This document shows positions 289 to 15,554 of a DNA stretch of 24,000 nt, piece after piece. The stretch is taken from the NCBI GenBank assembly GCA_022834735.1, contig BQKD01000001.1, positions 139,659 to 163,658 on the forward strand, in the 5' to 3' direction. This DNA is from Erysipelotrichaceae bacterium OPF54. GTDB taxonomy: Bacteria > Bacillota_I > Bacilli_A > Erysipelotrichales > Erysipelotrichaceae. Made by a program: the position numbers and the translations under genes. Each line of letters starts with the position of its first letter. Position 1 is the first letter of the stretch. A model generated the notes under the pieces. That model ran no database searches and was not told the DNA's origin. It saw only the letters and a program-made list of their open reading frames with translations.

Positions 289-1179
289 CTATTCAATAGG
301 CTTCTGATAAAATCGTCCATAGAAATTATCAATTTTATATGTGTATACTATAGCTTCCGGATCAACGTGTTTCAGACAGTCGATCACCGGCTTTTCTTCA
401 TAGCTGCTCACGATCGATTTGCACAGCGAGAACGGCTTGCCGCTGTAGCCGCCCTGCCCGTTCACGATGCTCATGCCATGACGGAAGTTTTTCTTGAACG
501 CCTGCGAGACGGCTTCGGGACGGGCTGTCGTCACCTCGACCATGATCTGCGCATAGCGGTGATAGAAGGTGGAAATGGTCCTTGTCGAAATGAACTGGAA
601 CACGATCGAATACCCTGCGTATTCCCACCCGAAAAATGATCCGAAGATCACGATGATGCACACATTGAACAGGAAAACCTGGTTCCAGATGCTTTTGTTG
701 CGCTTGTCCGAAATGTACATCGCGATGAAATCGGTCCCTCCGGTCGAGCCTTCGGTGCGCAGAGCAATGACAGAAACAAAGCCGTACAGAAAGCCGCCGA
801 ACATGACGTTCAGGAACAGATCGTTGAAGATCGGCTGGAAATGACACACATCCAGAAGAAGCGAGGTCAGAGCGAACTGGATGCAGCTCAGCAGCGTGAA
901 CCGCTTGGAAATGTGCCTGCTGCAAAGCAGGGCGGCCGGAATGTTCAAGCACAGGATGCCAAGAGAAACCGATACCGGAAAGCCGGCCAGCGAAGTCAGC
1001 TTGTTGATCAGGATAGCAAGGCCCGTAAATCCGCTGGAAAGCAGGTTGGCCGGATCCATGAAGCTCTGGATCACGAAAGTCTGAAGGATCGAGCTGACCA
1101 TGATCCAGAAGATGGAAAAGGCCAGCCGTGTCTGTTTGTTCTTGATCGAAGTCGTATCAAATATATTTATCATAATCAT
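289..1179 (-). CDS. YitT-family membrane protein (multi-TM region plus C-terminal DUF2179-like domain)
   Basis: ORF 289..1188 has a hydrophobic multi-TM N-terminal part and the GGTDF motif typical of YitT/UPF0750. Its C-terminal soluble domain contains the segments MVEVTTARPEAV, IVNGQGGYSGKP and EKPVI. The ORF track starts at a GTG (1188). The ATG at 1179 has an AGGTG RBS about 6 nt upstream, and the ATG at 1173 is also possible. Confidence 0.85.
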   Translation of the reverse strand: MIMINIFDTTSIKNKQTRLAFSIFWIMVSSILQTFVIQSFMDPANLLSSGFTGLAILINKLTSLAGFPVSVSLGILCLNIPAALLCSRHISKRFTLLSCIQFALTSLLLDVCHFQPIFNDLFLNVMFGGFLYGFVSVIALRTEGSTGGTDFIAMYISDKRNKSIWNQVFLFNVCIIVIFGSFFGWEYAGYSIVFQFISTRTISTFYHRYAQIMVEVTTARPEAVSQAFKKNFRHGMSIVNGQGGYSGKPFSLCKSIVSSYEEKPVIDCLKHVDPEAIVYTYKIDNFYGRFYQKPIE

Positions 1180-1227
1180 CACCTGCACCTAGTATAAGAA
1201 GCTGGTATCAAAAATAGAAGAAACCAT

Positions 1228-1300: not shown

Positions 1301-3217
1301 ATGCTCACACAACGACAGAAAAAGATCTGTGAGATCCTGCGCCGGCACACCTGGCTCAAAGGCAAGGAGCTTGCCGCCATGCTTGGCGTTACCGACCGGA
1401 CCATACGCAGCGATATCGAAACGATCAATATGGAAGGAAGCGGTCAGACCATCGAAGGCAATCCGCAGAAAGGGTATCATCTCATCCGTGAAAAAACCGA
1501 TGGATCGAATGCCGGCATGACACGCATACCGCAGACCCCTCTGGAACGCCAGGAATATATTGTCCGTACGCTTTTGTTCGATAAACGCGAACTGAATATG
1601 TATGAACTTCCGGAACAGCTCTGCGCAAGCATGTACACGATCGAAGCGGATGTGAAAACGATCCGTACGCATCTGACACAGTACGGCAATGTCCGGCTCG
1701 CAAAACAAAAAAACTGGATCTGGCTCGAAGGACAGGAAGGCAGTAAGCGCAAACTGTGCAAGGACATGCTCAACAAGGAACTCGAAGACAATTTTTCCAA
1801 TCTGAACGAAATGATCGGCCTGTACCCGAAATTCGATCTGCTGCGGGTCAAGGAAACGCTCGAAACAATATTGGAGGAGCATGACTACAAGATCCGCCCA
1901 TCCAGCATGCCGATGCTGCTCATGCATATCGGCATCGCCATCGAACGGATGCTCAATTTTCATTATCTTGAAAACAAAGATGTGGAAAACGGCCTGAGCG
2001 ATACGATCGAATACCAGATCGCTTCCACCTTTTTTGCGCGCATATCCCGCCAGATCCCGATCGAGATCAACGAAGCGGAGATCCGTCTGCTCACCCTGCT
2101 GCTGCTTGGCAAGCGAAGCAAGGCCTATACGCAGGAGGAAGTGGAGACCGGCAGCGCCATGATCCGCATTCCGGATCTGGTGCAGACAATGCTCGACGAT
2201 GTATATCAGCGCTTCGATATCGACCTGCGCGCAGACAGGGAACTGCGCAACGGCATGGAACTGCATATCCGCTCGCTGCTCATGCGCCATGAGCAGAATG
2301 TCAGCGTCGACAATGTGTATCTCAATGATATCAAGATCAAGTTTCCGCTCATTTTCGAAATGGGCGTACAGGCGGCCCGCGCCCTTGAGCAGCAGCTCGA
2401 CTTTACGATCAGCGAAAGCGAGATCAGTTTTCTTGCCCTTCATCTTGGCAACGCGTTCAACCGGCTCCAGTCATCCGGAAAATATCAGGTCGTTATGATC
2501 TTTCCGGACGACCAGTCGCTCGCAAGACGATGCAAGGAAAAGATCGAATCGCGGTTCGGCGACCGGATCGAGATCACAGCCCAGATGAACGTGTTCGAAA
2601 AGGAAAGCATCGAACGGCTCGAGCCCGATCTTATCCTTTCGTCCGTATATCTCAAGCACGATCTGCCCGTGCCGACACTGACCATCTCGCTTTTCATGAA
2701 CTACGAAGATGAAAGCGAGATCTTTCAGGCACTCAATCAGCTGGATAAAAAACGGACAAGCGGCCAGTTTCAGAGAATGATCAGGGAACTGATCATGCCC
2801 GATTTCTTTTATCCGCATCTGCAGGCGGAAAACGAACAGGAAGTCATAGAAACAATGTGCAATACCCTGACAGAAAAAGGATATGTGGGCAAAGACTACT
2901 ACACGCAGGTGCTCGAACGCGAACGGACCGCATCCACCTCGTTTTACACCGGCTTCGCGCTGCCGCACACCTTTGAAGGAACTGTCCTGAAACCGGCCAT
3001 ATCGATCGCGATCCTGGACAAGCCGCTGCGCTGGGGCCAGTTCGACGTCCAGCTCGTGATCCTGCTCGCCATACGGGATGTCGATCAGAATCTGCTCCGG
3101 GTCTTTTTTGACTGGCTCGCCCACTTCGTATCGGACGAGAAGCAGTTTCAGGACCTTATCAATCAGCGGGATGTCCATTTGTTTATCGAAACCATCACAA
3201 AGGAGGAAGAAAGATGA
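1301..3217 (+). CDS. PRD-domain transcriptional regulator (LicR/MtlR type: HTH, two PRDs, EIIB-like and EIIA-like domains)
   Basis: The 638-aa ORF has a GAGGAGG RBS. An N-terminal HTH is visible (LKGKELAAMLGVTDRTIRSDIE). The central regions are PRD-like and histidine-containing. The C-terminus is EIIA(Mtl/Fru)-like (FALPHT), and the gene sits directly upstream of PTS genes. Confidence 0.9.
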   Translation: MLTQRQKKICEILRRHTWLKGKELAAMLGVTDRTIRSDIETINMEGSGQTIEGNPQKGYHLIREKTDGSNAGMTRIPQTPLERQEYIVRTLLFDKRELNMYELPEQLCASMYTIEADVKTIRTHLTQYGNVRLAKQKNWIWLEGQEGSKRKLCKDMLNKELEDNFSNLNEMIGLYPKFDLLRVKETLETILEEHDYKIRPSSMPMLLMHIGIAIERMLNFHYLENKDVENGLSDTIEYQIASTFFARISRQIPIEINEAEIRLLTLLLLGKRSKAYTQEEVETGSAMIRIPDLVQTMLDDVYQRFDIDLRADRELRNGMELHIRSLLMRHEQNVSVDNVYLNDIKIKFPLIFEMGVQAARALEQQLDFTISESEISFLALHLGNAFNRLQSSGKYQVVMIFPDDQSLARRCKEKIESRFGDRIEITAQMNVFEKESIERLEPDLILSSVYLKHDLPVPTLTISLFMNYEDESEIFQALNQLDKKRTSGQFQRMIRELIMPDFFYPHLQAENEQEVIETMCNTLTEKGYVGKDYYTQVLERERTASTSFYTGFALPHTFEGTVLKPAISIAILDKPLRWGQFDVQLVILLAIRDVDQNLLRVFFDWLAHFVSDEKQFQDLINQRDVHLFIETITKEEER

Positions 3218-3825
3218 GAACACCGATCCGCCGTTTTTGCGCGATCCTCGACCAGCATACGACCAATGTCGAAGACGGGCGGCGCTTCGCCGCCTATCTG
3301 ATCGACTGGTTCTTGAGCGCCTTGTGCATGATGCTGCCAATGTGCCTGAGCTGGCTGTATGTAACAAAAGAAGTGGAAACGATGCGTTATGTCAATGTAT
3401 GGACGCTGCAGACGCTGCTCGGCACAAAAAGCGCTTTGCTCATTGCCCTGGCTGCTCTGGCGTGCGCCCTGTTTTACGAAGTCATCGTGCCTTGGAAGAT
3501 CTATCCGGGACAGACGATCGGCAAACGTGTCATGGGTTACCGCATGGAAACAAAAGACGGGCACACGCCCGGACTGATGGCTCTGCTTTTGCGCCAGGGA
3601 CTTGGACTGTTCGTCCTGGAAGGATGTCTGTTCAATGCCAGCGCCCTCATCTCGAACGCGATCTCGATGGTATCCGGACTGAATGTGACCGGGATCTTTT
3701 TGTGGGCTTCGATCGTCCTCACGATCATTTCGCTGATCATTGCTCTTTCATCGCCCAGCCGGCGCATGCTGCACGACTACCTGGCAAAAACGCACGTGGT
3801 CCGCACAGAAGAAACGACAAAATAA
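3214..3825 (+). CDS. RDD-family integral membrane protein
   Basis: The start overlaps the regulator stop (ATGA). The N-terminal RRFAAYLIDW motif, several TM segments and the C-terminal RRMLHDYLAKT motif are typical of the RDD domain. Confidence 0.8.
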   Translation: MRTPIRRFCAILDQHTTNVEDGRRFAAYLIDWFLSALCMMLPMCLSWLYVTKEVETMRYVNVWTLQTLLGTKSALLIALAALACALFYEVIVPWKIYPGQTIGKRVMGYRMETKDGHTPGLMALLLRQGLGLFVLEGCLFNASALISNAISMVSGLNVTGIFLWASIVLTIISLIIALSSPSRRMLHDYLAKTHVVRTEETTK

Positions 3826-3851
3826 ATAAAAAAAGGGAAGGTACAATCAAT

Positions 3852-4178
3852 ATGGAAAATATGGAACTCATTTGTTTTCAGATCATCTCGAACGTAGGGA
3901 TGGCAAAAAGCGCGTATGTGGAAGCGATCCAGCTTGCCGAAAAAGGGGATTTTGACACGGCAGGAACGCGCATGAAAGAAGGAAAGGAATTTTTTGTCAA
4001 AGGACACGAAGCGCATGCCGGGCTCATCCAGAAAGAGGCGGCCGGAGAAAAAACGAACGTCAGCCTGCTGCTCATGCATGCCGAAGATCAGCTCATGAGC
4101 GCAGAAACGATCGAGCTGATGGCAAACACGGCAATCCGCAACCTGGCTCGCATTGCCGAACTGGAAAAAAATTCCTAG
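3852..4178 (+). CDS. PTS lactose/cellobiose-family EIIA component
   Basis: A 108-aa protein (MENMELICFQIISNVGMAKS...HEAHAGLIQKEA...LLLMHAEDQLMSAE) matches the helical EIIA(Lac/Cel) pattern, including the conserved His. A GGGAAGG RBS lies upstream of the ATG at 3852. The longer ORF 3078..4178 is an artefactual 5' extension. Confidence 0.9.
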   Translation: MENMELICFQIISNVGMAKSAYVEAIQLAEKGDFDTAGTRMKEGKEFFVKGHEAHAGLIQKEAAGEKTNVSLLLMHAEDQLMSAETIELMANTAIRNLARIAELEKNS

Positions 4179-4226
4179 AACTAGGAACGAGCATTCTGAA
4201 AAGAATGACAGCGCTTTCGATACAAT
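4172..4226 (+). promoter_or_regulatory. Candidate activator-dependent internal promoter for EIIB/EIIC: TTCCTA-GAAC-TAGGAA palindrome, 33 nt, then a TACAAT -10 box
   Basis: The perfect palindrome 4172-4187 overlaps the EIIA stop codon. TACAAT lies at 4221-4226. The geometry is identical to 1228-1282, with the palindrome centre 41.5 nt before the hexamer. Confidence 0.45.
4206..4219. promoter_or_regulatory. cre-like (CcpA-type) catabolite-responsive element candidate
   Basis: TGACAGCGCTTTCG matches the idealised cre palindrome TGAAAGCGCTTTCA at 12 of 14 positions. It abuts the candidate -10 box. Two mismatches fall at conserved positions. Confidence 0.3.
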
Positions 4227-4250
4227 ACGATCAACAGGAGGATTCACATT

Positions 4251-4577
4251 ATGAAAAAAATCTATTTATTTTGCAGTGCAGGCATGTCCACAAGCATGCT
4301 CGCATCCATGATGCAGGCCTGCGCCGACAGTCACAAGCTGCCGCTCGAGATCAAGGCGTTCTCGCACAACAAGCTCGAAGAGATCATTGCCAGCGACCGC
4401 CCGGACTGTATTCTGCTCGGACCGCAGGTCAAGTACATGTATGAGGAAACGGTTGCTAAATTCGGACATGAAGGCATCCCGATCGCCGTGATCGACGCGG
4501 GGGACTACGGAATGATGAACGGCGAAAAAGTTCTCAAGACAACGCTTGGCATCATGAAAAAAGCGAAACAAAAATAA
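4251..4577 (+). CDS. PTS lactose/cellobiose-family EIIB component
   Basis: The 108-aa protein begins MKKIYLFCSAGMSTSML, which contains the canonical EIIB(Cel) phospho-cysteine loop. An AGGAGG RBS is present. Confidence 0.9.
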   Translation: MKKIYLFCSAGMSTSMLASMMQACADSHKLPLEIKAFSHNKLEEIIASDRPDCILLGPQVKYMYEETVAKFGHEGIPIAVIDAGDYGMMNGEKVLKTTLGIMKKAKQK

Positions 4578-4598
4578 TGAAATAACGAGGTTTTGGAA

Positions 4599-6002
4599 AT
4601 GGACAAATTAGAAAAACTGCTGATGCCGCTCGCGTCAGCTATCGGTAAAAACAAATATTTAATGGCCATCAGGGACGGCTTTCTGATCTCGACCCCGCTG
4701 CTGATCGTCGGATCGGTGTTCCTGCTGCTCGCCAACTTCCCGATCGCGGCCTGGACCGATTTTGTGGAAAACTGCATGATCGGCGACTTCTCGCTTGCCA
4801 CGCTGCTTTCCAAACAGTCAGATGCCACTTTTACGATCATGGCTATCTTCGCCACTATGGGAATCGGCTATTACTTTGCCCGCGAAATGAAGACGACGCC
4901 GATCTTCGGCGCAGCCGTAGCTCTCATGTCGTGGTTCATCTTGATGCCGTACAACTTTACGGCAAAAATTGCCGGGCTCGCGGATGCGACCGGTGTGGCA
5001 GTCAACGTACCGGAAGGTGCGACAAGCCTTGTACGCGGCCTTGATCTTGGATGGCTTGGCGCCAAAGGAATCTTTGTCGGCATCCTGTGCGCCATCTTGA
5101 GCGTGCACCTGTATGCATGGGTAGAGAAGAAGGGCTGGGTCATCAAGATGCCGGCTGGCGTTCCGCCTACGGTCGTCGCTTCGTTTGCCGCCCTTATTCC
5201 GGCCGGCATCGTCATGCTCGTCTTCTTTTTGATCAATATGCTTTTTGCGGCATGCGGAACGAACGCGTTCGAATTTATCTTTCAGTTCCTGCAGACCCCG
5301 CTGCTCGGATTAGGCGATACGCTTGGCGCCATGATCGTGGCCTACATTTTCCTGCATCTGTTCTGGTTCTTCGGGATCAACGGCGGTTCGGTCGTAGGCG
5401 CGGTATTCAATCCGATCCTGCAGACGCTTGCGCTCGAGAACCTGAACCTGTATCGTGAAGTCGGAGCTGCCGGCTATACGGTTCAGAATGGTGCCCATAT
5501 CATTTCGCAGCAGTTCCAGGATCTGTTTGCCACATTCGGCGGTGCCGGATCCACGCTCTCGCTGCTCATCGCGATGCTGCTGTTCTGCCGCTCGAAACGA
5601 ATCAAGGATCTTGGCAAGCTCTCGCTCGTTCCGGGAATCTTCGGGATCAACGAGCCGATCATTTTCGGTCTGCCGATCGTCCTCAACCCGGTCATGCTCA
5701 TTCCGTTCGTGCTCGTGCCGACAGTCAATATCATCCTGTCGTACTTTGCGATGAATATGGGCATGTTCCCGCCATGCAACGGGATCAACATCCCTTGGAC
5801 GATGCCGGTCATCATTTCAGGCTTTTTGGCAACCAACTGGGTAGGTGCCCTGTTCCAGGCCGGACTGCTCGTGCTGGGCGTGTTCATCTACCTGCCATTC
5901 ATCAAGGCAATGGACAAGCAGTATCTCGAGGATGAACAAAAAGCGATGGAAAACCAGGAAGAGGAAATCGATCTTGATGATTTCTCCTTTGACGATCTTT
6001 GA
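4599..6002 (+). CDS. PTS lactose/cellobiose-family EIIC permease
   Basis: This is a polytopic membrane protein of about 467 aa with typical EIIC(Cel) segments (LMAIRDGF, GINGGSV, GINEPIIFGLPIVLNP). The ORF track begins at a TTG (4593). The ATG at 4599 has an ACGAGG RBS 8 nt upstream. Confidence 0.9.
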   Translation: MDKLEKLLMPLASAIGKNKYLMAIRDGFLISTPLLIVGSVFLLLANFPIAAWTDFVENCMIGDFSLATLLSKQSDATFTIMAIFATMGIGYYFAREMKTTPIFGAAVALMSWFILMPYNFTAKIAGLADATGVAVNVPEGATSLVRGLDLGWLGAKGIFVGILCAILSVHLYAWVEKKGWVIKMPAGVPPTVVASFAALIPAGIVMLVFFLINMLFAACGTNAFEFIFQFLQTPLLGLGDTLGAMIVAYIFLHLFWFFGINGGSVVGAVFNPILQTLALENLNLYREVGAAGYTVQNGAHIISQQFQDLFATFGGAGSTLSLLIAMLLFCRSKRIKDLGKLSLVPGIFGINEPIIFGLPIVLNPVMLIPFVLVPTVNIILSYFAMNMGMFPPCNGINIPWTMPVIISGFLATNWVGALFQAGLLVLGVFIYLPFIKAMDKQYLEDEQKAMENQEEEIDLDDFSFDDL

Positions 6003-6025
6003 TGAGAAACAAGGAGGACAGGACA

Positions 6026-6541
6026 ATGAAAGTGATCATGATCTATGACCAGATCCAGGCCGGTGCCGGAACGAAAGACGATAAGATGATCGGATTGAAG
6101 GCGACCAAGGAAACCGTCGGTCCGGCCGTGATGATGGACCGCTATCTGAAAGCGAACGACGAACATGTCATCGCTACGCTGTACTGCGGCAACGGCTACT
6201 TCATGGAACATCAGCAGGAAGTCGTGCATAAGCTGTGCGCGATGGTCAAAAAGCTGAACGCGGACGGCGTGATGTGCGGGCCGGCATTCAACTATGCCGA
6301 ATTCGCTCTCATGTGCGCCATGGTGGCCGATCAGCTCAAAAAGGAAAATATCCCGGTCGTTGCTGCGATGTCCGCAGAAAACGAAACGACCATCGAACAA
6401 TACAGAAACAGCATTCCGATCGTCCGCTGCCCGAAAAAAGGCGGGACCGGACTGAACGAGACCTTGTCCAATATGTGCCGGGCACTGCACGATATCGCAC
6501 AAGGCCAGCCGATCGCCGATCAGTCGGAAATTTGTTTTTAA
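6026..6541 (+). CDS. Small GrdB-N-terminal-like protein (glycine/sarcosine/betaine reductase component B family fold), function unknown
   Basis: The 171-aa protein resembles the N-terminal third of GrdB at three points: the start MKVIMIYDQIQAGAGTKDD (GrdB has ..HYINQFFAG.GGE.KAD), the segment CGNGYF..EVV.KL..MVKKLNADGVMCGPAFNYAEFALMCA, and IPVVAAMSAEN. The AAGGAGGA RBS favours the ATG at 6026 over the TTG at 5999. There is no in-frame TGA. Confidence 0.6.
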   Translation: MKVIMIYDQIQAGAGTKDDKMIGLKATKETVGPAVMMDRYLKANDEHVIATLYCGNGYFMEHQQEVVHKLCAMVKKLNADGVMCGPAFNYAEFALMCAMVADQLKKENIPVVAAMSAENETTIEQYRNSIPIVRCPKKGGTGLNETLSNMCRALHDIAQGQPIADQSEICF

Positions 6542-6564
6542 AGAGAGCCCGGCTCTCTTTTTTT
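6542..6564 (+). terminator. Rho-independent terminator or attenuator after the GrdB-like gene
   Basis: AGAGAGC (6542-6548) pairs with GCTCTCT (6552-6558) across a 3-nt loop, followed by TTTTTT (6559-6564). Confidence 0.6.
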
Positions 6565-6592
6565 AAGGAAAAGGAACAGAGGTAACAGGAAC

Positions 6593-7552
6593 ATGTATGG
6601 AATTATCGCAACATGGAGAATGGCGCTCGAAGGCATTACAAAAGCAGAAGAGATGCTCAAAGAACATGCCGACGCAGGCGATGCGATCGAGACAGCCATC
6701 CGCGAAGTGGAAGATTTTGAATATTATAAAAGCATAGGATACGGCGGACTGCCCAACGAGGAAATGCAGGTCGAGCTCGATGCCGCCTATATGGACGGCG
6801 ATACGTTCGATATCGGCTGCGTGGCCGCCATCAAGGATTTCGCCAATCCGGTATCGATTGCCAGAGCGCTCTCGAAAGAGCCTGTCAACAACTTTCTTGT
6901 CGGGGCAGGCGCAGAGAAGTACGCCCATAAAATGGGATTTGAGCGCAAGAACATGCTCACCGAAAGAGCGCGGATCCATTATCACAACCGCATGAAGGAA
7001 GTGCGCGAGCTCGAGCTCAAACCGTATTCCGGACATGACACGGTCGGCATGGTCTGCCTGGATGAGCGCCATCATATGGTCGCTGCCACATCGACCAGCG
7101 GCCTGTTCATGAAGCGGGCTGGGCGCGTCGGCGACTCTCCGATCTCGGGCTCCGGATTTTATGTCGATTCCGAAGTAGGCGGAGCAAGCGCCACCGGGCT
7201 CGGAGAAGATCTGATGAAAGGATGCATTTCCTATGAGATCGTCCGGCTCATGAAAGAAGGGCTGCATCCGCAGCAGGCATGCGAAAAAGCCGTCGCCAAT
7301 CTGGACGAGCAGCTCAGGCGCCGCCGGACAAAAGCGGGCGACCTCTCGCTGATTGCCATGAACAATAAAGGCGAATGGGGCGTGGCTACCAATATCGAAG
7401 GCTTCTCCTTTGCGGTAGCGACCGAAAACGAAGCGCCGCAGGTCTATCTGGTAAAATTCGATGAAGACAGGAACCAGTACATCGAAAAGGCGAGCGATGA
7501 ATGGATGGACAACTATATGAAGACGCGCACCGCGCCTCTGGAGCGCAAGTAG
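6593..7552 (+). CDS. N4-(beta-N-acetylglucosaminyl)-L-asparaginase / isoaspartyl-peptidase family Ntn hydrolase (asparaginase-2 family)
   Basis: The 319-aa protein carries the autoprocessing motif SGHDTVGMVCLD with the nucleophile Thr. Downstream segments GRVGDSPISGSGFY and GASATGLGEDLM are typical of glycosylasparaginase/EcAIII-type enzymes. Confidence 0.85.
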   Translation: MYGIIATWRMALEGITKAEEMLKEHADAGDAIETAIREVEDFEYYKSIGYGGLPNEEMQVELDAAYMDGDTFDIGCVAAIKDFANPVSIARALSKEPVNNFLVGAGAEKYAHKMGFERKNMLTERARIHYHNRMKEVRELELKPYSGHDTVGMVCLDERHHMVAATSTSGLFMKRAGRVGDSPISGSGFYVDSEVGGASATGLGEDLMKGCISYEIVRLMKEGLHPQQACEKAVANLDEQLRRRRTKAGDLSLIAMNNKGEWGVATNIEGFSFAVATENEAPQVYLVKFDEDRNQYIEKASDEWMDNYMKTRTAPLERK

Positions 7553-7553
7553 G

Positions 7554-8618
7554 ATGACAGGCGACTGGCACAACCGGCTCATCCGCCAGGTCGAAACCAA
7601 TCAAAAGGAAATGCTGCAAGGTATCCTGGACATCGTATCGATCGACAGTACCCGAAGCGAAGCGTGCGCAAACAAGCCATTCGGGCCGGGCGTGGACCTT
7701 GCCCTCGAACAGACGCTGCAGCTGGCCCGATCGATGGGATTCGTGGTCGAAAATGTCGATCATTACGCTGGGATCGTCAAGTACGGAACAAGACCGGGAT
7801 GGGAAAGCGATGAGAAGTATATCGGTGTATTCGGCCATCTGGATGTAGTGCCCGCAAAAGGGCAGTGGACCACTCCCCCGTTCGAACCTTCCATCCGGAA
7901 TGGACGCATCTTTGCCCGCGGCATCCTCGACAACAAAGGGCCGATCCTGTCGTGCCTGTACGGTCTGTATGCCATCAAACAGCTCGGGCTCCCGCTCGCC
8001 CATCCGATCTGGATCGTATTCGGAACGAATGAAGAGACCGGGATGGCTGACATGGACCATTTCCTGAAAAAGAAACCGGCACCGATCGCCGGATGGACGC
8101 CGGACTGCAAGTATCCGGTCGTATACGCAGAACGTGGCCGTGCCGTATTCGAGACAGCGGCAGACACGTCATCGTTCACGCCGGAACAGTTCGGTCTCGA
8201 TATCACCGACCCTGAATTCGGACGGCTGGAATTCCGGCTCGACGAGGAGCACAAGCTCAAGGTCAGCTATCCGGCCAGCGTCGATCTCGAAACGATCGAA
8301 ACGAAAGTAAAAGAACACATCGACGCAACTCTTGTCGACAATATGCCGCCGGTGTTTTTCCCGAAAGAAGGCGTTCTCTGCCGCATTTTGAAGGAAACGT
8401 ATGAGCAGATGACAGGAATGGATGGCACGCCGGTCACGACAACTGGAGGCACGTATGCCAAAAAGGTGCCGAACATCGTGCCGTTCGGGCCAAGCTTTCC
8501 GGGACAGAAAGGGATCGCCCATCTGCCCGATGAATGGATGGATGTCGACGATCTCATGCAGAACGCGAAGATCTACGCGCTCAGCCTGTATCGTCTTGGA
8601 ATCGAGGAAACAGTATGA
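7554..8618 (+). CDS. M20-family metallo-dipeptidase (PepV/Sapep-like) with an unusually short lid region
   Basis: The motifs GHLDVVPA, W..PPF, GRIFARGILDNKGP, GTNEETG, TPDCKYPVVYAERG and the C-terminal GIAHLPDEW match the PepV clade. At 354 aa it is clearly shorter than the ~470 aa I recall for characterised PepV/Sapep. Confidence 0.8.
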   Translation: MTGDWHNRLIRQVETNQKEMLQGILDIVSIDSTRSEACANKPFGPGVDLALEQTLQLARSMGFVVENVDHYAGIVKYGTRPGWESDEKYIGVFGHLDVVPAKGQWTTPPFEPSIRNGRIFARGILDNKGPILSCLYGLYAIKQLGLPLAHPIWIVFGTNEETGMADMDHFLKKKPAPIAGWTPDCKYPVVYAERGRAVFETAADTSSFTPEQFGLDITDPEFGRLEFRLDEEHKLKVSYPASVDLETIETKVKEHIDATLVDNMPPVFFPKEGVLCRILKETYEQMTGMDGTPVTTTGGTYAKKVPNIVPFGPSFPGQKGIAHLPDEWMDVDDLMQNAKIYALSLYRLGIEETV

Positions 8619-9364
8619 ACGAAATAATAACGATCGAAGTGTGTGCCGGAAGCCTGGAAGACGCGCTGGCAGCCTATGAGGGCGGGGCACAACGGATTGA
8701 ACTCAACAGCGCGCTGAGTGTGGGCGGCTTATCGCCGTCTTTGTATGCGCTGACTGAAACAAAAAAACGGACAAGCCTGGAAGTCATCTGCATGGTGCGC
8801 CCAAGAGCAGCGGGCTTCTGCTATTCGGAAATCGAAAAGAATGTCATGATCGAAGAAGCAAAGTGTTTCCTTGAGCACGGAGCGGACGGGATCGCGTTCG
8901 GATTTTTGAACGCCGACCGCACGATCGATACACAATGGACAAAAAAGATGGTCGAGCTGATCCACAGCTATGAAAAGACGGCAGTGTTTCACCGGGCGGT
9001 CGATGTAGTCTCTGATTATGAGTCTGCTTTTGAAACGCTCGTTGATCTCGGTGTGGACCGGGTCCTGACAAGCGGCACGCACGCCAAGGCAATCGATGGA
9101 GCCGACCGTATCCAGGCTATGCAGGAAAGATTTGCAGATCAGATCGAGATCCTGCCAGGATCAGGGGTCAATGCGCAAAATGCGCGCAGCCTGATCGAAC
9201 GCACAGGGACGGATCAGGTGCATTCCTCGTGCAAAGGGTATCGCGCCGATCCGACAACGAGCGGCAGCCGCGTGTCGTATGCCTATCTTTCGGACGGGCA
9301 TGAAAACGAGTATGACATTGTCGAAGTTTCCAGGGTGCGCGCACTTGTGGAAGCCGTAAAATAA
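8615..9364 (+). CDS. cutC: CutC-family TIM-barrel protein
   Basis: MNEIITIEVCAGSLEDALAAYEGGAQRIELNSAL..GGLSPS and LTSG are typical CutC signatures. The start overlaps the M20 stop (ATGA). The ORF-track start at 8534 is an upstream extension. Confidence 0.85.
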   Translation: MNEIITIEVCAGSLEDALAAYEGGAQRIELNSALSVGGLSPSLYALTETKKRTSLEVICMVRPRAAGFCYSEIEKNVMIEEAKCFLEHGADGIAFGFLNADRTIDTQWTKKMVELIHSYEKTAVFHRAVDVVSDYESAFETLVDLGVDRVLTSGTHAKAIDGADRIQAMQERFADQIEILPGSGVNAQNARSLIERTGTDQVHSSCKGYRADPTTSGSRVSYAYLSDGHENEYDIVEVSRVRALVEAVK

Positions 9365-9384: not shown

Positions 9385-9415
9385 TTCACTGCCAGAATGC
9401 GTTTTTTTGTATAAT
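9385..9415 (+). promoter_or_regulatory. Candidate sigma-A type promoter for the Crp/Fnr gene
   Basis: TTCACT (9385-9390) is followed after 19 nt by TATAAT (9410-9415). The GGAGGGGAG RBS and the ATG at 9449 lie downstream. Confidence 0.3.
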
Positions 9416-9448
9416 AATACAAGCAAAACGGAGGGGAGAAACATACGT

Positions 9449-10108
9449 ATGAACTATTTAAGCTATATTCCGGTCTTTGATCATCTGGCCCGATCCGAAC
9501 AGGAACGGCTGAGCCAGGCCTCTTTTATTCGAAAATTCAGAAAAAACGAGATCCTGCATAACGGTTCGCAGGACTGTACCGGACTTGTTCTTGTATTGTC
9601 AGGCCAGCTTCGGGTCTTTACGATATCCGAGGAAGGCCGGGAAATCACGATGTATCGTCTTTTCGAACGCGATCTTTGTCTTTTTTCGGCTTCCTGTATC
9701 ATACACAGCATTCAGTTTGATATGACCGTTTCGGCCGAAAAGGATGCCGAAGTTCTTATGATCCCTTCAGAAGCCTATAAAAGCGTCATGGAAGTTTCCG
9801 CGCCGCTGGCCAATTACACAAACGAAGTGATGGCAAGCCGCTTTTCGGACGTCATGTGGCTGATCGATCAGATCCTGTGGAAAAGTTTTGATAAAAGACT
9901 GGCTGGCTTTCTTTTGGAGGAGATGGATATCGAAGAAACGGATACGCTCAGGATCACGCATGAAGCGATCGGCAATCATCTGGGAAATCCGCGGGAAGTC
10001 GTGACCCGCATGCTGAAATACTTTGTGAATGAAAATCTGATCTCGCTCTCGCGCGGAACCATTGAGATCAAAGACAGAGGGGGCCTTCAAAAGATCGCGG
10101 GAAAGTAA
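9449..10108 (+). CDS. Crp/Fnr-family transcriptional regulator
   Basis: A cyclic-nucleotide-binding-like beta-roll (GLVLVLSGQLRVFTISEEGREITMYRL) is followed by a C-terminal HTH (ITHEAIGNHLGNPREVVTRMLK). No N-terminal Cys cluster is present. The ATG at 9449 has an RBS, whereas the TTG at 9407 lies inside the promoter. Confidence 0.85.
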   Translation: MNYLSYIPVFDHLARSEQERLSQASFIRKFRKNEILHNGSQDCTGLVLVLSGQLRVFTISEEGREITMYRLFERDLCLFSASCIIHSIQFDMTVSAEKDAEVLMIPSEAYKSVMEVSAPLANYTNEVMASRFSDVMWLIDQILWKSFDKRLAGFLLEEMDIEETDTLRITHEAIGNHLGNPREVVTRMLKYFVNENLISLSRGTIEIKDRGGLQKIAGK

Positions 10109-10194: not shown

Positions 10195-11886
10195 TTACTG
10201 ATCCATCCCGCATGGGGAAGATCTTTTGCTGAGTTCCTTTTCGCTGCGGACCGCTTCATAGAACCGGTACCCTCCGGCGAAGTTGTAAGCATCCAATCCA
10301 TGACCGCTCAGGATCCGGCACGCAATATAGCTTCGTAATCCGCTCTGGCACATCACATACACCGGCTTGTCCGTATCGAGCTCATCGAGACGTCCGCGCA
10401 GCTCGTCGACCGGAATATGGATAAAGCCGTTTATATGGCCTGCATTGAATTCAGCAGGCGTGCGTGTATCAAGGAGCGTGACCTTTCCGCTTTTCAGAAG
10501 GGGCCCGAGATCCTCGTAGTACCATTGTTTCACGAGTCCGTTTTTTATATTTTCGATCATGAAGCCAGCCATGTTGACCGGATCCTTCGCCGAAGAATAG
10601 GGCGGAGCGTAGGCAAGATCAAGTTCGGAAAGATCATATGCCTTCATTCCGGCACGGATCGCTGCCGCCAGCACATCGATCCGTTTATCGACTCCGCTGT
10701 ATCCTGCGATCTGCGCGCCAAGCAGATGATAGGTATCCTTTTCGAACAGCACTTTCAAGGTCATGAGTTCGCCGCCTGGATAATATCCGGCATGATTCAT
10801 AGGCGACAGGATCACTTTGCCGTACTCTATACCAAGCGCATTGGCGGTCTTTTCATTGATGCCCGTGGCCGCCGCTGTCATATCGAAAAGCTTGATCACA
10901 GACGAGCCCTGGCCACCTTTGTAATGGCTGTCCAGACCGCAAATCGTATCGGCAGCGATCCGGCCCTGCTTGTTGGCCGGTCCGGCAAGAGAAATGAGAG
11001 TGTCCTGCCCGGTCACAAAATTTCTGATCTGCACCGCATCGCCGACAGCATAAATATCAGGAACGGAAGTTTCCATTTGATCATTGACCACGATCGCGTC
11101 TTTGATTCCGAGTTCCAGACCAGCTTCTTTGGCAAGCGTCGTTTCAGGCGCTACGCCAATCGCCATGATCACCATGTCCGTATGGAGGGCGGGTGTGTTT
11201 TTAAGCTTCACCTCCATATGGTCTTCGTGATCGGCAAAGCCCTGTACCATCGTATCGAGCATCAGATGGATGCTGTTTCTGCGGACCTGCGCGTGAATCA
11301 AGGAGGCCATGTCCTTGTCGAACGGGGCCATGAGCTGATCAGACGCTTCCACAAGCGTCACATCAAGACCGAGATCACGCAGATTTTCTGCCATCTCGAT
11401 CCCGATGAATCCTCCGCCAACGATCACAGCAGAAGCTGGTCGTCTGGAATCTATGTAGTTTTTGATCTTCAATGTGTCCTCGACTGTTCGGATCGTAAAC
11501 ACTTTGCCGCTGTCCATGCCTTCAAACGGAGGGGTGATCGGTCTGGCGCCTGGCGAAAGCAGCAGCTTGTCATAACTTTCCTTAAAAAACTGTCCGGTTT
11601 CCACATTTTTAACGGCCACTGTTTTTGTTTCGGGATGGATGGCTGTTACTTCATGATGCACGTGCACATCAATGTTGAAACGGTCCTGGAAGCTTTGGGG
11701 TGTCTGCAAGGTCAGCTCCTTTTCGTCTTCGATCGTGCTGCCAATATAATACGGCAGTCCGCAGTTTGCGTAGGAAATGAATCCGGACCGCTCAAAGACA
11801 ACGATTTCTGCCTGTTCGTCAAGTCGGCGTATTCTTGCGGCTGCTGTCGCGCCGCCGGCCACGCCCCCTACAATGATCACTTTCAT
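10195..11886 (-). CDS. CoA-disulfide / CoA-persulfide reductase-like flavoprotein with a C-terminal rhodanese domain (CoADR-RHD)
   Basis: MKVIIVGGVAGGATAAARIRR is an FAD-binding GxGxxG motif. ISYANCGLPYYIG carries the redox Cys. A second dinucleotide fold is visible (AVIVGGGFIGIEMAE). The C-terminal rhodanese active-site loop is VYVMCQSGLRS. Confidence 0.9.
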   Translation of the reverse strand: MKVIIVGGVAGGATAAARIRRLDEQAEIVVFERSGFISYANCGLPYYIGSTIEDEKELTLQTPQSFQDRFNIDVHVHHEVTAIHPETKTVAVKNVETGQFFKESYDKLLLSPGARPITPPFEGMDSGKVFTIRTVEDTLKIKNYIDSRRPASAVIVGGGFIGIEMAENLRDLGLDVTLVEASDQLMAPFDKDMASLIHAQVRRNSIHLMLDTMVQGFADHEDHMEVKLKNTPALHTDMVIMAIGVAPETTLAKEAGLELGIKDAIVVNDQMETSVPDIYAVGDAVQIRNFVTGQDTLISLAGPANKQGRIAADTICGLDSHYKGGQGSSVIKLFDMTAAATGINEKTANALGIEYGKVILSPMNHAGYYPGGELMTLKVLFEKDTYHLLGAQIAGYSGVDKRIDVLAAAIRAGMKAYDLSELDLAYAPPYSSAKDPVNMAGFMIENIKNGLVKQWYYEDLGPLLKSGKVTLLDTRTPAEFNAGHINGFIHIPVDELRGRLDELDTDKPVYVMCQSGLRSYIACRILSGHGLDAYNFAGGYRFYEAVRSEKELSKRSSPCGMDQ

Positions 11887-12210
11887 CTATCTCATCGCCT
11901 TTCCTTTGTAGCGGCTGATCCCGCCAATGTTTTCTGCTTTCACGAAGCCGGCTTGCGTTAAATAGGAAACGGCCTGCCGGCTTCTTGCTCCGCTCTGGCA
12001 ATATACGTAAAGCGGGGTGTTTTTGTCTTTGATCTTTTTGTCGATCGTAGAGATTTTATCAAGAGGAATATTGATGCTGCCTTCGATATGTCCGCTCCGG
12101 TATTCCGGCGGTGTCCGCACATCCAGAAGAACGGCTTGTGGATCGGCTTTGTATTTGCTGACACCGGAATTGATGTCTGTACCTGCGCCTAAAAAATTAA
12201 ACAGTCCCAT
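11887..12210 (-). CDS. Single-domain rhodanese (sulfurtransferase)
   Basis: The 107-aa protein contains LLDVRTPPEYRSGHIEGSINIP and the active-site loop YVYCQSGARS. Its stop codon directly abuts the CoADR start. Confidence 0.85.
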   Translation of the reverse strand: MGLFNFLGAGTDINSGVSKYKADPQAVLLDVRTPPEYRSGHIEGSINIPLDKISTIDKKIKDKNTPLYVYCQSGARSRQAVSYLTQAGFVKAENIGGISRYKGKAMR

Positions 12211-12217
12211 TTTTTCC

Positions 12218-12523
12218 TCACAGCAGCTGTTCGATCTGGCTTTTCGGCCGATATCCCGTAACCCGGTTTTCCATTTTTCCGTTTCTGATCACGGCAAGAG
12301 TCGGGATCCCTGCCACCTGGAACCGTGCGGCCAGTTCCGGCTGTTCGTCCACGTTGATCTTGCCCACTTTGATGTCGCTTCTCTCTTTTGCGATTTCTGC
12401 AATAACGGGTCCAAGCATGCGGCATGGACCGCACCAGTCGGCATAGAAGTCGAGAAGCACAGGCTGGGGGCACCGGATCACTTCATCTATAATATTTTCT
12501 TTTGTGATTTGAATTTCAGACAT
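12218..12523 (-). CDS. trxA: Thioredoxin
   Basis: The 101-aa protein has the WCGPC active site, VGKINVDE and GIPTL. A GAAAGGAG RBS is present. Confidence 0.9.
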   Translation of the reverse strand: MSEIQITKENIIDEVIRCPQPVLLDFYADWCGPCRMLGPVIAEIAKERSDIKVGKINVDEQPELAARFQVAGIPTLAVIRNGKMENRVTGYRPKSQIEQLL

Positions 12524-12780: not shown

Positions 12781-13482
12781 ATGAACACAGTGATGAGACA
12801 GGAAAAAAAATATCTGATCGACCGCGTGAAGATGGTAGAGCTCAAATCGTATTTTTCACATTTTCTTACGCTCGACCCCCACACAAAAAACGGAACGTAC
12901 CGCGTACGCAGCCTGTATTTCGATTCGATCGACGACCGGGACTATCATGAAAAGGAGGAAGGGATCGAGCTGCGGCGCAAGATCCGCCTGCGCATTTATG
13001 ATCCTGACAGCCCGTATGCGATGCTCGAAATGAAGAAGAAGGAAGGCAGCAGCCAGCAGAAGCGTTCGATGGCCATGTCGCGTCAGGATGCCGAAGAGCT
13101 GATCGGCGGACGGTATGATGTGCTGCTCCAGTACGATACGCCTTTTGCCAAAGAGTGCTATGTCGTCATGAACATGCATCTTTACCGTCCCCGCTCGATC
13201 GTGGAGTACGAGCGGATTGCGTATTGCGGGCCGGCCAATAATATCCGCATCACTTTCGATCATGATATCCGTTCGACCGAAACCGACTTCGACCTGTTTT
13301 CGAAAAATCTGAATCTGTATCCGGTTTTCGGACAGGACCGGGTCGTTCTCGAGGTCAAATACAACGGGTATTTGTTCAGTCCGATCAAGATGGCGCTGCA
13401 GAGCTGCGATCACAGCGAAGTGTCGGTCGGAAAGTACAGCCTGAGCCGCTCTGCCGGCCTGCACTATATTTATCAACTATAG
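12781..13482 (+). CDS. VTC-domain protein (polyphosphate-polymerase-like triphosphate tunnel fold)
   Basis: The 233-aa protein starts MRQEKKYLI, an E-x-K type tunnel motif. It also has YRVRSLYFDS, ELRRKIRLRIY, LEMKKK, VVLEVKYNG and KYS. It is soluble, with no TM segment. An AAAGGAGGGG RBS is present. Confidence 0.85.
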   Translation: MNTVMRQEKKYLIDRVKMVELKSYFSHFLTLDPHTKNGTYRVRSLYFDSIDDRDYHEKEEGIELRRKIRLRIYDPDSPYAMLEMKKKEGSSQQKRSMAMSRQDAEELIGGRYDVLLQYDTPFAKECYVVMNMHLYRPRSIVEYERIAYCGPANNIRITFDHDIRSTETDFDLFSKNLNLYPVFGQDRVVLEVKYNGYLFSPIKMALQSCDHSEVSVGKYSLSRSAGLHYIYQL

Positions 13483-13597: not shown

Positions 13598-14716
13598 ATG
13601 CCGAACAAAGCCTGCAAATTCAGACTCTATCCAACGCCAGCACAGAAGATCCTCCTTGCAAAGACATTCGGCTGTGTCCGCCTTGTCTACAACCATTGGC
13701 TCGATCGAAAGATCAGCCAATACAAAGAAGATCAGACAACCTTGAGTTACACTTTCTGTGCCAAAGAGCTGGCTGTACTGAAGAAAACAGAAGAGTCCGC
13801 CTTCCTGAAGGAAGTCGACAGCATTTCTCTGCAGCAGTCGCTCCGCCATCTGGATCAGGCCTTCCAGAACTTCTTCAAACGGCCCGGAACAGGATTTCCA
13901 CGATTCAAATCCAAAAGAAACAGAAAGAACAGCTATTCGACCGTCTGCGTCAATCAGAACATTCTCCTGTCCGACGGCTGTTTGAAACTGCCAAAGATCG
14001 GACAGGTCAAGGTGAAACAGCATCGGGAGATTCCTGAATCGTATGTTCTCAAGTCGGTGACTGTAAGCCAGAGCCCGAGCGGAAAGTATCATGCAAGCAT
14101 TTCGTTCGAGTACGAAAACCAAGTATCGGAAAGAAAGCCGCACACTTTCCTTGGACTCGACTTCTCGATGAACAGACTGTACAAAGACAGCGAAGGAAAC
14201 GAAGCAGAGTATCCTAAGTATCACAGGCAAGCGGAAAAGAAATTGAAACGGGAACAGCGCAAGCTGTCGCACATGCAGAAAGGCTCCAGAAACTGGGAGA
14301 AACAGCGGATCAAGGTCGCAAAGCTGCATGAAAAGGTTGCCAATCAAAGAAAGGATTTTCTGCATAAGCGATCAAGAGAGATTGTCAATGCGTATGACTG
14401 CGTCTGCATAGAAGACCTGGATATGAAAGCGATGGCAAGATCGCTGCATTTTGGCAAATCGGTTCATGACAACGGATGGGGCATGTTCACTGCTTTCCTG
14501 AAGTACAAACTGGAAGAAGAGGGAAAACAGCTGATCCGGATCGACAAATGGTTTCCTTCGAGCCAGACCTGCTCAGTATGCGGGTATAAGAATCCGGAAA
14601 TAAAAGATCTCGGCATGCGGGAATGGGACTGCCCTCGATGCAAAAGCCATCACGATCGGGATCTCAATGCGGCAATCAATATAAGAAAGGAAGGCATGCG
14701 GATCGTAATGGCATAG
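13598..14716 (+). CDS. tnpB: TnpB (IS200/IS605 OrfB) RNA-guided endonuclease-type protein
   Basis: MPNKACKFRLYPTPAQKILLAKTFGCVRLVYNHWL is a typical OrfB N-terminus. The RuvC-like acidic residues lie in LGLDFSM, CIEDLDMK and HDRDLNAAINI. A zinc ribbon is present (CSVCGYKN...CPRCKSHH). Confidence 0.92.
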   Translation: MPNKACKFRLYPTPAQKILLAKTFGCVRLVYNHWLDRKISQYKEDQTTLSYTFCAKELAVLKKTEESAFLKEVDSISLQQSLRHLDQAFQNFFKRPGTGFPRFKSKRNRKNSYSTVCVNQNILLSDGCLKLPKIGQVKVKQHREIPESYVLKSVTVSQSPSGKYHASISFEYENQVSERKPHTFLGLDFSMNRLYKDSEGNEAEYPKYHRQAEKKLKREQRKLSHMQKGSRNWEKQRIKVAKLHEKVANQRKDFLHKRSREIVNAYDCVCIEDLDMKAMARSLHFGKSVHDNGWGMFTAFLKYKLEEEGKQLIRIDKWFPSSQTCSVCGYKNPEIKDLGMREWDCPRCKSHHDRDLNAAINIRKEGMRIVMA

Positions 14717-14874: not shown

Positions 14875-15552
14875 ATGAGAGACATTTTGGAAGGCATGCT
14901 TGCTGAATCCGGAACTTTGACCACCGAAGAGATCTTAATGCATATTTTCGCGGCTCTGGTATTAGGCATGTTTATTTATATATCGTATTATATCAGCCAC
15001 GCGGGAACGGCATATTCCCGCAAATTCAATATTTCGCTCGTCTGTCTGACAGTCCTGACCGCCACGGTCATGACCGTGATCGGCAACAATCTTTCGCTTT
15101 CGCTCGGTATGGTCGGCGCCTTGTCGATCGTCCGGTTCCGGACAGCGGTCAAAGATACGAGAGACACGATCTACATATTCTGGACGATCGTGGTCGGTAT
15201 CTGCTGCGGGGTCGCGGACTATCTGGTCGCGTGTGCCGGAAGTGCCGTGATCTTTGTCATCCTTTTGTTCCTCGGCCACGTGAAAAACGAAAACCGGATC
15301 CTGCTCATTGTCAAAGGGAGCAGGATGTACGAGGATCAGATCGAAAAGGAGATCTTCGATTATTTCAGCCGCAAGGCGCTGCTCCGCACCAAGAACACGA
15401 CGCCGACCACAGTGGAATATATTTACGAGCTGTCCAGGAAAATGCTGAATGAAAGCAGCCGGAGCGGCACATCGATCACCAGCGCTCTTTATGAGATCCC
15501 CGATACGCAGTATGTCGATATTGTCGCGCAGAGCGATGAGATCAGCGGATAG
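14875..15552 (+). CDS. DUF4956-family membrane protein
   Basis: An N-terminal TM bundle contains GALSIVRFRTAVKDTRDT, the hallmark I recall for DUF4956, and is followed by a soluble C-terminal domain. An AAAGGAGG RBS is present. Confidence 0.8.
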   Translation: MRDILEGMLAESGTLTTEEILMHIFAALVLGMFIYISYYISHAGTAYSRKFNISLVCLTVLTATVMTVIGNNLSLSLGMVGALSIVRFRTAVKDTRDTIYIFWTIVVGICCGVADYLVACAGSAVIFVILLFLGHVKNENRILLIVKGSRMYEDQIEKEIFDYFSRKALLRTKNTTPTTVEYIYELSRKMLNESSRSGTSITSALYEIPDTQYVDIVAQSDEISG

Positions 15553-15554
15553 AG

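Follow-up and report, generated by a model that had tools for sequence, protein, structure and literature searches.

The question raised by this stretch of DNA is what substrate is handled by a lactose/cellobiose-family phosphotransferase system (PTS) whose genes are followed, on the same strand, by those for a glycosylasparaginase, an M20 peptidase and a CutC protein. The stretch, referred to below as the window, comprises 24,000 nt of Erysipelotrichaceae bacterium OPF54 (assembly GCA_022834735.1, contig BQKD01000001.1, positions 139,659 to 163,658), and positions are counted within it. A first-pass annotation proposed that the locus salvages asparagine-linked N-acetylglucosamine (GlcNAc) through the PTS. 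That proposal is supported here, as a lactose/cellobiose-type PTS, a cytoplasmic glycosylasparaginase and a peptidase occur together and form a core homologous to the ega locus of Enterococcus faecalis. Judging by sequence comparison, the locus probably serves PTS-dependent utilisation of N4-(beta-N-acetylglucosaminyl)-L-asparagine (GlcNAc-Asn) and would be a functional counterpart of ega. GlcNAc-Asn is the linkage stub left when glycoproteins are deglycosylated and proteolysed, and as such the product in which the breakdown of N-glycoproteins universally ends.

Nine genes, all on the plus strand, span positions 1301-9364 according to Pfam and NCBIfam assignments and to the reading of the open reading frames. 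A tenth, on the opposite strand, lies to their left:

289-1188, minus strand: YitT-family membrane protein (YitT_membrane and DUF2179 by Pfam; start uncertain by about 15 nt)
1301-3217, plus strand: PRD-containing transcriptional activator of the MtlR/LicR/ManR class (HTH_11, Mga, two PRD, EIIA(Mtl/Fru))
3214-3825, plus strand: RDD-family membrane protein (Pfam RDD, E 1.3e-17)
3852-4178, plus strand: PTS EIIA, lactose/cellobiose family (PF02255, E 4e-30; start taken from the sequence)
4251-4577, plus strand: PTS EIIB, lactose/cellobiose family (PF02302)
4593-6002, plus strand: PTS EIIC, lactose/cellobiose family (Pfam and NCBIfam)
6026-6541, plus strand: protein resembling the N-terminal part of GrdB, without selenocysteine (NF041545, 'GrdB-related putative oxidoreductase', 228 bits against a cut-off of 175)
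6593-7552, plus strand: cytoplasmic glycosylasparaginase, an N-terminal nucleophile (Ntn) hydrolase (Asparaginase_2, HDTVG, no signal peptide)
7554-8618, plus strand: M20 metallopeptidase of the PepV/Sapep type with a shortened lid domain (354 amino acids (aa); NCBIfam and alignment to PepV)
8615-9364, plus strand: CutC-family TIM-barrel protein (PF03932, 186 bits)

Every gene that the first-pass annotation named between 1301 and 9364 was recovered in the same orientation by Pfam and NCBIfam. The junctions also read as described there, with a single nucleotide between the amidase and M20 genes (TAG-g-ATG at 7550-7556) and an ATGA overlap of the M20 and cutC genes at 8615-8618; another ATGA overlap, at 3214, translationally couples the regulator and RDD genes. 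The start of the GrdB-like gene, placed earlier at 5999, was moved to 6026. As previously stated, the locus contains no phospho-glycosidase of the GH1 or GH4 type.

When compared with solved structures, the amidase matched the Flavobacterium glycosylasparaginase at 199 bits (E 1e-57) and isoaspartyl peptidase/L-asparaginase structures at 111-117 bits. Its HDT at residues 148-150 aligns with H150-D151-T152 of the Flavobacterium enzyme, which bears out the autoprocessing site ascribed to it, and its GRVGDSPI and ATGLGE segments align with the aspartate-binding residues R180/D183 and the oxyanion residues T203/G204. The Ntn-hydrolase fold family, the HDT triad and the aspartate-binding and oxyanion residues are therefore those of the Elizabethkingia/Flavobacterium glycosylasparaginases and human AGA. 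Unlike such exported or lysosomal enzymes, however, the window enzyme lacks a signal peptide, indicating that it acts in the cytoplasm; it also differs in carrying a C-terminal extension of about 35 residues and the pair R9/M10. It is the sole Asparaginase_2 gene product of the 3.22-Mb genome.

The pair R9/M10 lies at the sugar subsite. Trp11 and Phe13 of the Flavobacterium enzyme, which we take to form its aromatic sugar pocket, provide the reference, and the sugar-stacking tryptophan is retained in the window enzyme as W8. The neighbouring R9-M10 is invariant in 81 PTS-linked homologues, whereas exported enzymes (n = 2) have N/D and F/T at these positions. The clade formed by the 81 sequences shares further invariant basic residues as well as the C-terminal extension. 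Its R9/M10 features may reflect a remodelled, positively charged sugar subsite that accommodates a 6-phosphorylated substrate.

A system of this kind has been described. The ega locus of E. faecalis (enterococcal glycosylasparaginase; Combret et al., Res Microbiol 175:104169, 2023/24) is described in a later paper (PMC11549559) as having a GntR regulator, a dipeptidase, the glycosylasparaginase EgaG, the PTS components EIIB and EIIC of the lactose/cellobiose type, and a gene for a GrdB-like 'putative oxidoreductase'. Another paper from the same group calls ega a GlcNAc-L-Asn PTS, served by the EIIA CelA1, and reports the compound as utilised (PMC11976118). On the strength of these accounts the earlier remark that no PTS route for such compounds had been characterised is outdated, and the functional proposal, although right in essence, was already established in kind by ega. 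What is new is a differently regulated and enlarged variant, with a PRD/RDD module, its own EIIA, a lid-less M20 peptidase, CutC and YitT, that is widespread in gut Firmicutes. No description of this enlarged PRD/RDD-EIIA-CutC-YitT form was found in the literature searched.

The two systems have in common a cytoplasmic glycosylasparaginase, a lactose/cellobiose-type EIIB and EIIC, a GrdB-like gene after IIC and an M20 peptidase of the PepV/Sapep type. They differ in gene order and in control, the window locus having a PRD activator, a coupled RDD gene and a palindromic operator in place of the GntR repressor EgaR. The window M20 gene follows the amidase in the same unit, whereas the ega dipeptidase is described as separately transcribed; the window locus encodes an EIIA of its own, whereas E. 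faecalis is said to borrow CelA1; and it adds CutC and a YitT-family gene to the parts reported for ega. The window M20 protein also lacks about 115 lid residues relative to the ega type. The ega layout is shared by approximately 35 loci from Enterococcus, Vagococcus, Lactococcus and Pediococcus, in most of which IIC is followed by a GrdB-like gene. One of the ega-layout loci, on a megaplasmid of Enterococcus raffinosus, reads GntR-Sapep dipeptidase-amidase-IIB-IIC-IIA, and its products share 58% (amidase, over 315 aa), 54% (IIC), 47% (IIB) and 46/41% (M20) identity with those of the window.

Likenesses to systems without a PTS were also found. The alf-2 cluster of L. casei, which acts on fucosyl-alpha-1,6-GlcNAc-Asn (Becerra et al. 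2020; PMC6960285), links the cytoplasmic glycosylasparaginase AsnA2 to PepV; there PepV is dispensable for the free glyco-amino acid and is proposed to act on glycopeptides. Like the window locus, alf-2 thus joins a glycosylasparaginase and a PepV-type peptidase in the cytoplasm, handles a glyco-amino acid of the N-glycan core and delivers its product to GlcNAc catabolism. It differs in having the major facilitator superfamily (MFS) permease AlfH, the fucosidase AlfC, the ROK kinase SugK, AsdA and a GntR regulator, and in lacking a PTS, a GrdB-like gene and CutC. The N-glycan loci of Hymenobacter, Rhodanobacteraceae and Xanthomonas resemble the window in that the cutC gene directly follows, and often overlaps, that for the glycosylasparaginase. 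In Hymenobacter tibetensis (L083) the amidase-CutC pair lies among genes for GH92, GH18, a ROK kinase, nagB and an MFS transporter; unlike the window enzyme, this amidase is exported, with a twin-arginine translocation (Tat)-type signal, and no PTS is present. In Xanthomonas, cutC (XAC3091) adjoins the asparaginase gene XAC3092 beside the nix N-glycan cluster (PMC6718126, PMC5700972).

To what extent the genes belong together can be judged from their conservation. A species-representative genome collection contained 396 relatives of the amidase, and all counts of related loci given here refer to the best 80 of these. The 80 share 75-92% identity with the window amidase, the nearest being that of Dubosiella muris, and come from Erysipelotrichaceae, Clostridium, Lachnospiraceae, Butyricicoccus and Peptacetobacter. 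The order amidase-M20-CutC is retained in 75 of them, and at least 35 show the complete order regulator-RDD-IIA-IIB-IIC-GrdB-like-amidase-M20-CutC; a compact alternative, IIA-IIB-amidase-M20-CutC, is also seen. The nine-gene order recurs across Erysipelotrichaceae, Clostridium and Lachnospiraceae, and this synteny places the arrangement well beyond chance. Three Clostridium loci (L034, L043, L056) retain the cassette together with YitT and have no CutC, which is accordingly dispensable to the cassette.

The amidase clade is linked to PTS IIC genes in Bacillota, Actinomycetota and Gammaproteobacteria. In the last group Buttiauxella, Vibrio scophthalmi, V. ichthyoenteri, Enterovibrio, Photobacterium, Testudinibacter and Parasalinivibrio (L150-L157, L174-L176) carry an amidase of the same clade, 54-58% identical to the window enzyme and flanked by lactose/cellobiose-type IIC and IIB genes; the linkage to the PTS thus crosses phyla.

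The cassette has a tenth member that the first-pass annotation left out. The YitT-family gene at 289-1188 is divergent from the regulator gene, and homologues with 46-87% identity were identified in 48 of the 80 related loci. In 40 loci the gene lies directly 3' of cutC, or of the M20 gene where CutC is absent, and in 10, all belonging to the window's clade, it is divergent from the regulator as here. YitT is by these observations a conserved part of the cassette, and the unit extends leftward to include it. The Amedibacillus dolichus locus (L003) has a YitT gene with its own copy of the operator palindrome described below, while in another Erysipelotrichaceae genome (L098) YitT stands directly 5' of amidase-CutC. 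That genome (G186) also encodes a MupG-type 6-phospho-N-acetylmuramidase (L098:12426-13577, minus strand) a few kb from its reduced YitT-amidase-CutC-IIA-RDD unit, which has a divergent PRD regulator. Weak YitT homologues flank some of the ega-layout loci of Enterococcus. In the literature searched for the YitT family no assigned function was found.

Whether the cassette is controlled as one system was approached through its regulator and intergenic sequences. By Pfam the regulator consists of HTH_11 (residues 5-59), Mga (83-149), two PRD and EIIA_2 (504-634); Pfam gave no match to the EIIB(Gat)-like segment that would be expected around residues 400-500. It heads the cassette in relatives, at 37-79% identity. 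Three noncoding elements enter the argument:

1228-1243, strandless: predicted operator palindrome 1, TTCCTAACGCTAGGAA, followed after 33 nt by a -10-like TACAAT at 1277-1282 (promoter P1)
4172-4187, strandless: predicted operator palindrome 2, TTCCTAGAACTAGGAA, overlapping the IIA stop codon and followed after 33 nt by TACAAT at 4221-4226 (promoter P2)
6540-6564, plus strand: intercistronic hairpin AAAGAGAGC-CCG-GCTCTCTTT and T run (stem-loop 6540-6560, T run to 6564)

Palindrome 1 lies between the YitT and regulator genes, and the distance from palindrome to TACAAT is identical, exactly 33 nt, at P1 and P2. The general form TTCCTA-N3-6-TAGGAA gave 128 matches in 1.2 Mb from the 80 related loci, against 0.65 expected from shuffles, and the window's entire 3.22-Mb genome holds exactly two copies, those at 1228-1243 and 4172-4187. 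In related loci the palindrome precedes the regulator gene by 20-100 nt and IIA or IIB by about 70-105 nt. It is also found in front of IIA-IIB-amidase units and, where the amidase module is detached (L020, L028, L033, L062), about 92-105 nt 5' of the amidase gene. The palindrome is a probable operator of the PRD activator, as predicted from these positions, and its presence before both promoters as well as before the detached amidase modules argues that the locus forms one regulon. The activator would bind the two TTCCTA-N4-TAGGAA palindromes and drive two promoters, with P1 yielding a regulator-RDD-IIA transcript and P2 a transcript of IIB, IIC, the GrdB-like gene, the hairpin, amidase, M20 and CutC. 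As is inferred from the class of regulator, phosphorylation of its PRD and EIIA domains by the PTS would tie induction to the availability of the substrate. A ribonucleic antiterminator (RAT) or riboswitch element was ruled out, as an Rfam scan of the entire window matched no family.

The hairpin between the GrdB-like and amidase genes bears on a different reading of the locus, in which an ordinary beta-glucoside or chitobiose PTS operon merely precedes an unrelated unit for isoaspartyl or asparagine peptides and the hairpin at 6540-6564 is a full terminator. The first-pass annotation had marked a terminator at 6542-6564 and held that its proposal would fail if this split the locus into two independently regulated units. 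The hairpin and T run are indeed present, and most related loci have a hairpin at the same position, with unrelated sequences. As a terminator, however, the element is weak, its stem (6540-6560) having 9 bp with 4 G-C pairs and a fold z-score of -1.2, and no promoter-like site was found in the 28-nt spacer 3' of it. The two observations make a partial terminator or transcript-stabilising element, which the hairpin probably is, likelier than a boundary of independent units. A division into two units could further appeal to the separation of the modules in some genomes and to the amidase's only NCBIfam match, a beta-aspartyl-peptidase model that scores far below its cut-off. Yet the same palindrome precedes the PTS genes, the IIA-IIB-amidase units and the detached amidase modules, the locus lacks a phospho-beta-glycosidase, the amidase is clearly nearer to glycosylasparaginases, and its clade is linked to IIC in all three of the bacterial groups named above. 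We give this division the slightest chance of all the readings considered.

If the locus is a single system for GlcNAc-Asn, its genes suggest the following order of events. EIIA, EIIB and EIIC would import GlcNAc-Asn, and possibly short glycopeptides, phosphorylating the sugar to give GlcNAc-6P-Asn. The lid-less M20 peptidase would then trim any residues still attached to the asparagine, a step proposed because glycosylasparaginases require free alpha-amino and alpha-carboxyl groups. In the cytoplasm the glycosylasparaginase would split the amide into L-aspartate and 1-amino-GlcNAc(-6P), and the latter would decay, or be assisted in decaying, to GlcNAc-6P and ammonium. NagA and NagB, whose genes lie outside this locus, would route the product to glycolysis.

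The genome, which is 3.22 Mb in size and 99.85% complete, agrees with such a route in having two nagA genes, nagB and ptsI. GH18, GH85 and GH29 genes are absent from it. The strain should accordingly be able to use GlcNAc-6P and be unable by itself to release or defucosylate N-glycan cores; as the common families of endo-beta-N-acetylglucosaminidases and fucosidases are not represented in it, it would scavenge GlcNAc-Asn set free by the host or by other bacteria. Chitobiosyl-Asn, offered in the first-pass annotation as a second possible substrate, is unlikely. It was set aside along with larger glycans, since the locus encodes no hexosaminidase or phospho-glycosidase and the genome lacks the three glycoside hydrolase (GH) families just named.

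The HLDVVPA, LDNKGP, NEET, TPDCKYP and AHLPDE segments of the M20 peptidase align with His87, Asp119, Glu153/154, Asp177 and His439 of PepV (1LFW), and the di-metal ligands and catalytic glutamate are all retained. The label of PepV-like dipeptidase given to it earlier thus fits its catalytic domain but not the protein as a whole, as most of the lid is absent: 35 residues stand in for PepV 195-348, and a serine aligns with Arg350. The M20 proteins of relatives have a median length of 371 aa, and because the protein is short in all of them the 354-aa window protein is not a truncation. The lid residues Asn217, His269 and Arg350 of PepV, according to work attributed to Jozic et al. in 2002, reportedly fix the carboxylate of the dipeptide.

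Several of these observations weigh against GlcNAc-Asn as the substrate, or against the parallel with ega. The lid residues that define dipeptide specificity are absent from the M20 protein. The sugar subsite of the amidase differs from that of the Flavobacterium enzyme, with Phe13 replaced by Met and Asn12 by Arg. Sequence comparison with ega was made through congeneric Enterococcus loci that have the layout described for it, and identity to those loci is moderate, at 47-58%. Lastly, four conserved cassette genes, those for CutC, the GrdB-like protein, RDD and YitT, have no assigned role in the pathway.

Some of these points would be accommodated if the principle were the same and the substrate another or broader one, such as X-Asn(GlcNAc), short glycopeptides, or the Glc-Asn of bacterial N-glucosylation, with the M20 peptidase and perhaps CutC being obligatory. 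Almost all loci link the M20 gene to that of the amidase, the missing lid would open its active site, and the part proposed for L. casei PepV is played on glycopeptides (PMC6960285). The replaced pocket residues N12 and F13 set the amidase apart from characterised glycosylasparaginases, and EIIC, which falls below the equivalog cut-offs of the cellobiose, lactose and chitobiose IIC models, is the equivalog of no characterised IIC. Against this, the closest characterised system takes GlcNAc-Asn itself, permeases of the lactose/cellobiose family take molecules of disaccharide size, and nagA and nagB are at hand for GlcNAc-6P. We therefore regard the broader substrate as unlikely, and utilisation of GlcNAc-Asn as the probable function.

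The genes without an assigned role invite another explanation, namely that the cassette is a means of acquiring nitrogen or aspartate, or of detoxifying a glycosylated amide, instead of a route of carbon catabolism. CutC, YitT and the GrdB-like protein would then deal with the products other than sugar, for instance through export or conversion of ammonium or aspartate. Four conserved genes outside a simple carbon pathway, one of them for the membrane protein YitT, would fit, as would the aspartate-handling AsdA of L. casei alf-2 (PMC6960285). A PTS and PRD-type control are, however, characteristic of the catabolism of carbohydrates, the genome has the nagA/nagB route, and GlcNAc-L-Asn is reported as a utilised substrate in E. 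faecalis (PMC11976118). We consider this explanation very unlikely, and it is as parts of a GlcNAc-Asn cassette that CutC, the GrdB-like protein and RDD are treated in what follows.

CutC proteins, an orphan family of TIM barrels, are conserved in organisms ranging from bacteria to humans. The model of the window protein (predicted local distance difference test (pLDDT) 96) superposes on human and Shigella CutC with template-modelling (TM) scores of 0.85-0.91, and its next structural neighbours are the phosphate-binding barrels MJ1099, thiamin-phosphate synthase, ribulose-phosphate epimerase and 2-keto-3-deoxy-6-phosphogluconate (KDPG) aldolase. Cys31 and Cys52 of human CUTC are presumably the pair proposed to bind Cu(I). 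At the second copper-site cysteine position the window protein has Asn, and N31 is invariant in all 40 aligned cassette CutCs. The copper phenotype of Escherichia coli from which cutC takes its name is due to the MicL small RNA encoded inside the gene (PMC4102768).

The distribution of CutC was surveyed across 201 genomes sampled from the GTDB phylum to which the window belongs, every one of them in its class. All 20 amidase-bearing genomes in this sample have CutC, within 3 kb of the amidase in 9, while overall it occurs in 82 of 199 genomes of the same sample. Among 77 CutC loci outside Bacillota that could be assessed, 42 have a glycosylasparaginase gene directly 5' of cutC, including 32 of 42 in Hymenobacteraceae and 6 of 7 in Rhodanobacteraceae. 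The glycosylasparaginase-CutC linkage therefore spans three phyla, Bacteroidota and Pseudomonadota among them. Conversely, small Mollicutes-like genomes of 0.8-1.5 Mb (G003, G014, G015, G023 and others; L085-L095) keep CutC without an amidase, often with metK on one side and a gene of the GidA family, trmFO-like by its length, on the other; its neighbours there also include PhoU, an oxidoreductase and, once, a NagB-like gene. CutC is thus not confined to carriers of the amidase, which argues against a dedicated role.

With that caveat, our favoured guess, a speculative one, is that CutC hydrolyses the glycosylamine product. The glycosylamine 1-amino-GlcNAc decays slowly at the neutral pH of the cytoplasm. 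As an enzyme of N-glycan-core catabolism acting after the glycosylasparaginase, CutC would convert 1-amino-GlcNAc(-6P) to GlcNAc(-6P) and ammonium, and YitT, RDD and the GrdB-like protein would equally be dedicated parts of a ten-gene pathway. Taken as a whole we find this extended proposal doubtful.

The RDD and GrdB-like proteins were earlier called unexplained extras. Both are instead conserved members of the cassette, the RDD gene lying directly 3' of the regulator in 50 of the 80 related loci, and the GrdB-like gene 3' of IIC in this cassette and, as a rule, in the ega-layout loci of Lactobacillales. The constant position after IIC in both types of locus suggests a role tied to the transporter. 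At 171 aa, the GrdB-like protein matches only positions 2-165 of the 347 in the Pfam profile of GrdB. Full GrdB, the selenoprotein B of glycine/sarcosine/betaine reductase (about 430 aa, with selenocysteine in its C-terminal part), was ruled out on this length and on the absence of grd genes nearby. Its AlphaFold2 (AF2) model (pLDDT 96) has a flavodoxin-like alpha/beta fold, and DQ-Q-G-G-K, CG, GP and PKK-G are invariant motifs. A fold search with this model returned only generic flavodoxin- and CheY-like neighbours, the best being MlrC (7ylq, E 6e-4, TM 0.56), and no sequence relative of the protein was found in the PDB.

The remainder of the window holds genes outside the cassette. A Crp/Fnr gene directly to the right (9407-10108) was considered as a member of the unit and rejected, having no counterpart in related loci. 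On the minus strand at 10195-12523 are a pyridine-nucleotide disulphide oxidoreductase-rhodanese fusion (CoA-disulfide-reductase-like) and small open reading frames that resemble a stand-alone rhodanese and a thioredoxin by sequence; together they make up a sulfur/redox trio without relation to the PTS genes. An IS605-type OrfB/TnpB gene (13598-14716, plus strand; OrfB_IS605 and Cas12f1-like TNB domain) separates a VTC-domain gene (12781-13482) from a DUF4956-CotH pair (14875-17063), and appears to have inserted into a polyphosphate-related cluster. A 696-aa open reading frame at 17067-19157 (plus strand) has no Pfam match and is followed by genes for a HEAT-repeat protein and a chitin-synthase-like GT2 glycosyltransferase.

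At least 396 of the species-representative genomes contain a relative of the amidase, and the nearest of these come from gut Erysipelotrichaceae, Clostridium, Lachnospiraceae and Butyricicoccus. This spread of the cassette suggests that cross-feeding on GlcNAc-Asn is a common gut niche that goes beyond one enterococcal case. For the PRD activator it provides a well-defined operator, and the regulon appears to be this single locus. Leads are also provided for families that have had no function: for CutC through its association with glycosylasparaginase in three phyla, for the GrdB-N-like proteins through their place after IIC, and for YitT and RDD through membership of the cassette. Should the reading of CutC prove true, the cassette would define a complete ten-gene pathway.

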